From NCBI RefSeq assembly GCF_055900595.2, contig NZ_CM148325.1: 64,000 nt of DNA. One strand, written 5' to 3'. Positions 41,136-42,054 of the stretch are shown one piece after another. The translations under genes were made by a program, and so were the position numbers. Within the stretch, counting starts at the first letter, position 1; the number at the start of each line of letters is the position of its first letter. The notes beneath the pieces were generated by a model. That model did not search any database, was not told the DNA's origin, and worked only from the letters and a program-made list of their open reading frames with translations.

Positions 41136-42054
41136 GAATCTTGACCTTTTTTGCTGTTATCGCCACTCCCTGCCGTGGAAGTCAGCTTAGAACAATGTAC
41201 TCCCCCAGGACGGCGTTTTGAAGGTCTGCAGAATAAGATTTTGCCAGAGGGGAAGACTCGATTGTGCTGTTAATAACTTAATAATGGCAAAATAATGAGG
41301 TGTATATGCTTAGTAATTAATGTTATGTAGTGAATTGTTCTGATTCTTAATTGTGAGTGTGGTTTTTTTATCTGTAAGATAATTGTTTGAAAATGCCTCG
41401 TTTAAGAATTCACTAATGAATCGTGATGATGATATTTCCGCATTACGGAGAGTTTAACAGCGTGATGATTTCCGAGGTGTCGTAATGGGTGCAAGGTGTG
41501 AAACTATTGTTAAGCGGGATTAATGAATGAGGATGATGCTAATTAATTATTATTTAATATTCAAAAAGGTTTTGTTGTGCTTATTAATAATAGAAGATTA
41601 CTTTGCCTAACATAACATAACTTTGCATCAGATAATTCGCAATGACCCTTATAAATAAAAGGTTTTTGGGGTAAAATGCTCGCATAAATGACGGATCCCT
41701 GCTCTTGATGCCGCCTCACCATTGCTGTTTGTACGTGTTCGCGTATGACCAGCGATGCTGCACGAGAGTGGAACAAGGACTCACATTTACATTTATACAA
41801 ACACGCGCATGTCATAAATACAAAAGAGTGAGTAACTTAATAGATATGCGATTCCTGAAGATATATTCTGTGATCTACTTCAGGCATTATAACGGAACAA
41901 TGTGAGTCGCTTTTTTAGTGCAACTCATATGCATTTTTACTTTCGTCCGGGTTCCGGATGAAACTGCCAGGGAGGCACATTACAAATGGAATTGCTTGTT
42001 TGTGTGTGCACAGCATTAACCAGCTCAGTACGAGCCGCCAGTAAGTGATAATAT

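Follow-up and report, generated by a model that had tools for sequence, protein, structure and literature searches.

The long alaA-lrhA spacer of Escherichia coli as a probable shared control region, with a small RNA-targeted lrhA leader and a conserved hairpin in the predicted alaA leader

The small RNA (sRNA) ArcZ controls lrhA orthologues, namely hexA in Photorhabdus and Xenorhabdus and pecT in Dickeya. The ompA leader exemplifies the 5'-terminal stabilising stem-loops of enterobacterial mRNAs. In Escherichia coli, the 5' untranslated region (UTR) of lrhA has itself been described as a target of multiple sRNAs acting with Hfq (PMC4152368, PMC10578931, PMC12704781), and the '920 bp-long lrhA-alaA' spacer in which it lies was placed by Shimada et al. 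(PMC3946193) among the long intergenic regions bound by many factors. The divergent spacers csgD-csgB (755 bp) and nanC-fimB (1456-1458 bp) belong, according to the same authors, to this class of stress-regulator promoters with numerous transcription factor sites. Here we describe the alaA-lrhA gap as it occurs in a 64,000-nucleotide (nt) stretch of contig NZ_CM148325.1 (NCBI RefSeq assembly GCF_055900595.2), the whole of which is referred to below as the window. The gap is very probably a shared, bidirectional control region of the divergent alaA and lrhA genes, with both ends under strong constraint. Unlike the csgD-csgB and nanC-fimB spacers, about 40% of it is transcribed leader, and its H-NS flag in the genomic SELEX (systematic evolution of ligands by exponential enrichment) table is blank. 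Most of what the gap contains has been documented already: the general reading is right, the finding is an ordinary one, and with the published features placed on the window the gap needs no new explanation. The only part that we have not found described, and possibly a new item, is the hairpin on the side of the alaA leader.

Of 5426 complete E. coli genomes, 5425 have a chromosomal match to the 1.2-kb region around the gap, and the window is colinear with the gene order yfbS-yfbR-alaA <-> lrhA-nuoA..N, in the orientation opposite to that of K-12. The K-12 gap is likewise 919 bp long, differs from that of the window at 27 positions and carries no annotated feature. The preliminary description of this DNA, made from the letters alone, had called the gap the longest non-coding stretch of the window, and this is borne out: with open reading frames (ORFs) of at least 100 amino acids as a proxy for genes, the longest interval lacking them is the gap itself, followed by intervals of 621 and 588 bp. 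Among lrhA loci taken from 80 species-representative genomes, alaA lies divergently upstream of lrhA in 78, across a gap of 764-1140 bp (median 943 bp), and Erwinia, Proteus, Xenorhabdus and Sodalis likewise have the two genes in divergent orientation, separated by 0.8-1.0 kb. The length of the lrhA leader can be estimated at approximately 370-460 nt across species (median about 396 nt). The gap was also said to be strongly AT-rich, which applies to its core (41261-41683, 423 bp, 31% GC), the only notably low part; the gap as a whole (38.3% GC, against 51.8% for the window) resembles the other promoter-bearing gaps of the window, which have 35-41% GC. Low GC content is shared by the relatives: the gap between alaA and the LysR gene has 28-40% GC across Enterobacterales, and the mean for the Enterobacteriaceae gaps at this locus is 38%.

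Conservation along the gap forms a mosaic (Table 1), in which the segment identities are means against 78 Enterobacteriaceae species, and the neutral proxy is the identity at fourfold degenerate sites of alaA and lrhA (mean 0.41). A lack of conservation above the neutral background had been named beforehand among the outcomes that would speak against the initial reading; it is seen in the repeat-bearing segment, and three sub-regions are conserved above that background. The AT-rich spacer between the promoters evolves at or below the neutral rate. It harbours 17 of the 27 differences between the window and K-12, and 21 of the 27 fall within 41256-41575. At 41312-41318, six of seven adjacent bases differ (AGTAATT in the window, TACATGC in K-12), a clustered replacement in the hypervariable spacer and not a set of scattered point changes.

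On the lrhA side, the window shows nothing essentially different from the published 5' UTR: it has the start site, the UhpU-M1 position and the distal region targeted by sRNAs. Its leader differs from that of K-12 at 4 of 371 positions, one of which (42031, C in the window and T in K-12) lies between the RprA/McaS block and the UhpU site. This 5' UTR was described as 'unusually long 371 nt' by Melamed et al. (eLife 2023; PMC10578931), whose fusion primer SM079 begins at ATAAATGACGG, corresponding to window position 41684, which gives the transcription start site (TSS) below a conserved -10 element. The placement of the lrhA promoter agrees with this published start at A41684, and its -35 and -10 (TAARAT) with the 17-nt spacer are kept in 75 of 79 species. 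The AT-rich blocks that precede the promoter, conserved like it in some 75 species of Enterobacteriaceae, are presumably binding sites for regulators. Chromatin immunoprecipitation (ChIP) has shown Lrp bound here, with activation (bioRxiv 276808), as well as OmpR (PMC3945435), and lrhA is reported in the literature to be positively autoregulated by LrhA. The initial view of the gap as regulatory DNA with a long 5' UTR is supported by the 371-nt leader, its TSS at 41684, and the ChIP binding of Lrp and OmpR. The accompanying suggestion that H-NS and Fis bind this DNA fared less evenly. H-NS is reported to repress lrhA strongly in BW25113 (PMC12968389); however, the HNS column for the lrhA-alaA spacer is blank in the genomic SELEX table (PMC3946193), no match to the H-NS nucleation motif TCGATAAATT with up to two mismatches occurs in 41136-42054 (a weak test, as H-NS also binds AT-rich DNA without the motif), and no evidence for Fis at the gap was found in the literature.

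The distal part of the lrhA leader is where the sRNAs would converge. In RNA interaction by ligation and sequencing (RIL-seq), the leader formed chimeras with UhpU, ArcZ, RprA and McaS, and an lrhA-lacZ fusion was repressed by UhpU, ArcZ and RprA, with the UhpU pairing proven by compensatory mutation (PMC10578931). McaS gave the most RIL-seq chimeras with the leader, yet did not regulate the fusion. Comparison of the published gBlock with K-12 identifies the lrhA-M1 mutation as a C-to-G change at 42039, 16 nt upstream of the ATG and inside CCGCCAGU, which is complementary to ACUGGUG of UhpU; the UhpU site is identical across 816 E. albertii strains (PMC12704781). For ArcZ, the exact E. coli site probably lies within CUGCCAGGGAGG, where E. 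coli carries CCAGGGA at 41965-41971 (-90 to -84). In Erwinia, Proteus, Xenorhabdus and Sodalis (loci L089-L092), the complement of ArcZ CCUGGUGU is present in the LysR-gene leaders as ACACCAGG or ACGCCAGG, some 45 nt before the ATG; both the position and the exact sequence of the ArcZ complement differ between the predicted site of E. coli and that of the distant genera. RprA and McaS would pair at the conserved block that follows the 3' end at 42005: its CACAGC is kept in nearly all of the 71 aligned leader sequences, and CACAGCA is complementary to UGCUGUG of both sRNAs. The distal blocks AAAUGGAAUUGCUU, (G)CACAGCA and GUAAGUGA are conserved in most of the 71 leaders, with the AGTG core of GUAAGUGA invariant. 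Altogether, the last 90 nt, which contain the pairing region, are conserved above the neutral rate (0.61, compared with 0.41 at fourfold degenerate sites). The predicted fold of the leader has a free energy of -111.6 kcal/mol (z = -2.6), better than 99 of 100 shuffled sequences.

The lrhA leader also gives rise to short RNAs. Bilusic et al. (RNA Biol 2014; PMC4152368) detected an Hfq-bound 'ig-lrhA-alaA' RNA by co-immunoprecipitation and Northern analysis, with species of 150 and 350 nt, observed that an approximately 1.5-kb lrhA transcript increases in an hfq mutant, and concluded that the short RNAs are fragments of the lrhA 5' UTR. Sequencing of 3' ends (Term-seq, Adams 2021; PMC7815308) revealed dominant ends at K-12 positions 2406933(-) and 2406691, which map to 41763 (+80 from the TSS) and 42005 (-50 from the ATG) of the window. 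The end at 2406691 is listed there as lying 50 nt upstream of the lrhA ORF, with a Rho score of 1.06, no Rho region, its intrinsic-terminator score being 3.7. The shorter fragment, which reaches from the TSS to 41763, is poorly conserved outside Escherichia. The stable Hfq-bound fragments of 80 and approximately 320 nt might act in trans as sponges of McaS or UhpU, a weaker possibility than that of a regulatory element in the alaA hairpin.

The opposite end of the gap faces alaA. Nearly every base of the putative alaA -35 and -10 elements is invariant in the aligned Enterobacteriaceae, and both are present also in Erwinia, Xenorhabdus and Sodalis. From the invariant TTCAAA-N17-TACATT, we infer that alaA transcription would start near 41187 and yield a leader of about 50 nt. 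A simple consensus promoter scan overlooked both this promoter and that of lrhA because of their weak -35 hexamers. Just upstream of the -35 element lies the block CAGAAnAAGATTTTG, conserved in most aligned genera and a candidate activator or Lrp-type site; counted by hand, it agrees at 12 of 15 positions with the Lrp consensus YAGHAWATTWTDCTR.

The predicted alaA leader opens with a hairpin, G-C-U-(G)-ACUUCC / ACGGCA / GGGAGU-GGC, whose core ACUUCC-ACGGCA-GGGAGU occupies 41165-41182. The loop and the inner stem do not vary among 65 distinct sequences, and its outer pair is AU in 42, GC in 12 and GU in 8 sequences, while another pair alternates between U-G (36) and U-A (25). Pairing is retained in 81% of the alignment cells, compared with 42-57% when the partner is slid; 28 cells are changed on both sides, against 11.7 +/- 2.3 in shuffled alignments, and the covariation score exceeds all 500 shuffles. 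The minimum free energy fold of the E. coli sequence gives the same hairpin. The presence of G-U pairs makes RNA folding of the alaA sense strand a better account than a DNA palindrome. The hairpin is kept throughout Enterobacteriaceae, and related forms are seen in Erwinia (UUCC-ACGGCU-GGAA) and Sodalis (AUUCC-AUGGUU-GGAAU); Proteus and Xenorhabdus are without one. No Rfam family and no paper describing the hairpin were found, and literature searches combining alaA or yfbQ with sRNA, GcvB or UTR returned nothing relevant beyond the lrhA-leader paper. A metagenome scan for the hairpin 16-mer was uninformative: 5 of 120 matches were alaA leaders, and the rest lay outside an alaA context, mostly on high-GC contigs, presumably by chance. 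Our best guess is that the structure is a 5'-terminal stabilising or factor-binding hairpin. As in the ompA-type stem-loops, it would start 0-2 nt from the 5' end, and compensatory and G-U-tolerant changes preserve it; it departs from a pure stabiliser of that type in the invariant sequence of its 6-nt loop and inner stem. As a pure stabiliser would not need such invariance, it hints at sequence-specific recognition. The bolder reading, in which the hairpin (CUUCC-ACGGCA-GGRAG) is an undescribed cis-regulatory RNA, with a protein or RNA recognising its sequence and adjusting alanine transaminase synthesis, and not a passive 5' stabiliser, is tentative and in our judgement rather unlikely.

Other origins for the contents of the gap have to be weighed against a control region with two leaders. 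One is that a gene of its own, for a separate sRNA or for a small protein, lies in the gap in addition to the leaders. The short RNAs co-purifying with Hfq were indeed first listed as intergenic, but the same study assigned them to the lrhA 5' UTR; the abundant 3' end 80 nt downstream of the lrhA TSS belongs to an RNA that uses this very TSS, and the curated K-12 annotation contains no gene here. Beyond the ends of the lrhA leader, no dominant 3' end was recorded in the gap under two growth conditions of the Term-seq study (PMC7815308). An Rfam 15 scan of the gap at permissive thresholds returned only chance-level hits (the best, STnc170, with 20 bits against a gathering score of 80, the others being eukaryotic small nucleolar RNA or microRNA models), and a promoter/terminator consensus scan stayed below the shuffle expectation, with no terminator inside the gap. 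An ATG-initiated ORF of 28 codons (41958-42044) ends 10 nt before the lrhA ATG; it is, however, truncated or start-less in four of five Citrobacter/Salmonella loci, and only 3 of 78 species keep it intact. Of the 13 ORFs in the gap (25-84 amino acids), none is conserved outside Escherichia, and they are intact in 0 to 18 of the 78 species without a consistent pattern. An independent gene is therefore very improbable. The preliminary description had allowed for a small RNA or a small protein; the former survives as Hfq-bound fragments of the lrhA leader (PMC4152368) with 3' ends at 41763 and 42005 and not as an sRNA gene of its own, and the latter finds no support. For an origin of the gap as horizontally acquired or selfish DNA under H-NS silencing, in place of native regulatory DNA, the chance is close to negligible. 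The 31% GC of the core, its high polymorphism and the H-NS repression of lrhA in BW25113 would fit such an origin; against it, the gene pair and a gap of like size and composition occur in all 78 Enterobacteriaceae species with both genes and in four other Enterobacterales families, mobile-element features or insertion-type repeats were not found in the gap, and the H-NS nucleation motif is absent from it.

A further alternative concerns the imperfect direct repeat in the spacer, which might represent paired transcription factor sites, about four helical turns apart, controlling lrhA and/or alaA. The repeat that the preliminary description had highlighted, with copies about 40 bp apart, is real, except that the extra bases are GATAT and not GAT: copy 1 is CGTGATGAT-GATAT-TTCCG (41422-41440) and copy 2 is CGTGATGAT-TTCCG (41461-41474), at a spacing of 39 bp. 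The short inverted repeats also pointed out there exist as well, e.g., TCCG-CATTA-CGGA at 41437-41449, and none of them stands out. A 9-mer repeated within 60 bp arises in 67 of 300 dinucleotide shuffles (22%), so that alone it is at chance level, whereas the gapped 9+7 match (16 nt) arises in 1 of 300, which is nominally significant for a statistic defined after the repeat had been seen. Paired sites would gain further from a third related copy, TAATGAAT..GATGATG, located 107 bp off within a conserved block, and from the fact that the repeat has only one mismatch in most E. coli alleles. The comparison with relatives argues the other way. Of 93 loci, the window's own allele alone has the exact motif; copy 1 reads CGCGATGAT in the sequence type 361 (ST361), O157:H7, K-12 and FDAARGOS_1293 alleles, and in K-12, the strain in which lrhA regulation was studied, the final G is lost too, making two changes. 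The repeat is missing from E. albertii, from a divergent Escherichia locus (L005) and from every other locus aligned, and it lacks the conservation of sequence and spacing among relatives that a repeated operator or iteron-like binding array would show. The 106 nt at 41395-41500 are at least 99% identical in 829 of 5426 E. coli genomes and have no megablast match in 937. As it sits in the least conserved segment, which changes at the neutral rate or less constrained still, and as most E. coli strains have it in imperfect form and other Escherichia species not at all, the repeat is unlikely to be functional. Most likely it arose as a local duplication specific to a lineage and has no conserved role, and paired sites are improbable.

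Several points nevertheless weigh against the reading of the gap as two constrained control elements, or against parts of it. For the last 95 nt of the lrhA leader (71 sequences), RNAalifold gave no consensus structure, a result that fits single-stranded sRNA sites without proving them. In seed-only energy scans, alternative sRNA sites in the 5' part of the leader score similarly to those in the 3' part; because of this ambiguity, the published M1 mutation and the conserved seed complements were relied on for placing the sites. No experimental alaA TSS was found in the sources consulted, and the genomic SELEX paper (PMC3946193) guessed at another alaA promoter further upstream, TTAAGA-17-TATAAC, which is non-conserved. 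Direct binding of H-NS to the DNA of the gap was likewise not found in these sources. Finally, given the rarity of the gapped match in the shuffles, the repeat retains a small chance of having a strain-specific function. As to method, RNAduplex with full-length sRNAs was also tried for site placement and discarded, as it returned long, meaningless duplexes.

Table 1. Features and conservation segments of the alaA-lrhA gap, in window coordinates
Feature	Coordinates	Strand	Mean identity	Details
Gap	41136-42054			919 bp, between the alaA ATG at 41135 (-) and the lrhA ATG at 42055 (+)
Segment: alaA leader	41136-41190		0.75	
Segment: alaA promoter	41191-41245		0.67	
Segment: AT-rich spacer	41246-41495		0.32	0.67 and 0.62 against two other Escherichia species
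Segment: lrhA upstream and promoter	41496-41683		0.56	
Segment: lrhA leader, 5' part	41684-41965		0.29	0.81 and 0.72 within Escherichia
Segment: lrhA leader, last 90 nt	41966-42054		0.61	0.99 within Escherichia
alaA 5' leader (predicted)	41136-41187	-		about 50 nt; putative TSS at 41186-41188
alaA leader hairpin	41162-41186	-		sequence in the text
alaA promoter (putative)	41194-41222	-		sigma-70; -35 TTCAAA (41222-41217), N17, -10 TACATT (41199-41194)
Conserved block CAGAAnAAGATTTTG	41229-41243			directly upstream of the alaA -35 element; possible site of an activator or of Lrp type
Imperfect direct repeat	41422-41474	+		CGTGATGAT[GATAT]TTCCG and CGTGATGATTTCCG
Conserved AT-rich blocks	41496-41648		0.56	TGTGAA..TGTTAAG..ATTAATGAAT (41497-41528) and AATTAATTATTATTTAATATT (41541-41561); identity 0.93 and 0.80 within Escherichia
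lrhA promoter	41649-41677	+		-35 TTATAA (41649-41654), N17, -10 TAAAAT (41672-41677)
lrhA 5' UTR	41684-42054	+		371 nt, about 40% of the gap
lrhA leader 5' fragment	41684-41763	+		about 80 nt; ends at an 'orphan' Term-seq 3' end, two growth conditions
ArcZ pairing site (predicted)	41962-41973	+		CUGCCAGGGAGG, complementary to ArcZ UUUCCCUGGUG
3' end and conserved block	42005-42015	+		Term-seq 3' end at 42005, then GCACAGCA, complementary to the UGCUGUG seed shared by RprA and McaS
UhpU pairing site	42034-42043	+		adjoins the ribosome-binding region

Some observations were made elsewhere in the window. The Term-seq study (PMC7815308) lists a very abundant 'orphan' 3' end at K-12 position 2405082(-), with 475,924 and 124,622 reads, which maps to approximately 43614 (+), 9 nt upstream of the nuoA ATG at 43623, and points to a stable RNA that ends within the nuo leader. 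Compared with NZ_CP043414.1, the closest complete genome, about 1.56 kb inside yfbK are missing at 59322-60728, and yfbL is seemingly split into two ORFs (59322-59615 and 59646-60140); the loss and the split may reflect gene decay in the strain of the window. In the yfcL-mnmC gap (4563-4833) and the dedD-cvpA gap (17624-17786), repeats of approximately 160-180 bp differ in copy number from the closest genome, as seen from duplicate BLAST alignments, and are presumably elements of the repetitive extragenic palindromic (REP) or bacterial interspersed mosaic element (BIME) type.

The arrangement that we propose would work as follows. On the lrhA side, a sigma-70 promoter behind the conserved AT-rich, protein-binding blocks would drive transcription from 41684 through the 371-nt leader. 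The last ~90 nt of this leader would offer conserved, apparently single-stranded recognition blocks at which Hfq-dependent sRNAs pair and reduce LrhA production. UhpU would do so at the ribosome-binding region, and ArcZ and RprA farther upstream, where McaS would bind too. Part of the leader would be cut or terminated into Hfq-bound fragments. On the alaA side, the conserved promoter would produce a short leader opening with the conserved hairpin, which most likely stabilises the 5' end of the mRNA or binds a factor. The AT-rich spacer of about 250 bp between the promoters, under little constraint, may provide a binding platform for proteins of the nucleoid type, for instance H-NS, Lrp or OmpR.

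LrhA stands high in the regulatory networks of E. coli, with motility, fimbriae, RpoS and, most recently, CRISPR-Cas under its influence, and its long leader is a point at which several stress-responsive sRNAs converge. What the comparative analysis adds is that gap size and leader length are kept across Enterobacteriaceae, with the gap size also kept in four further genera of Enterobacterales, and that the constraint is gathered in three islands, while the motif that first drew attention lies in the one freely drifting segment. The alaA hairpin offers a modest starting point, open to experiment, for work on how alanine synthesis is controlled, a subject that has been little studied.

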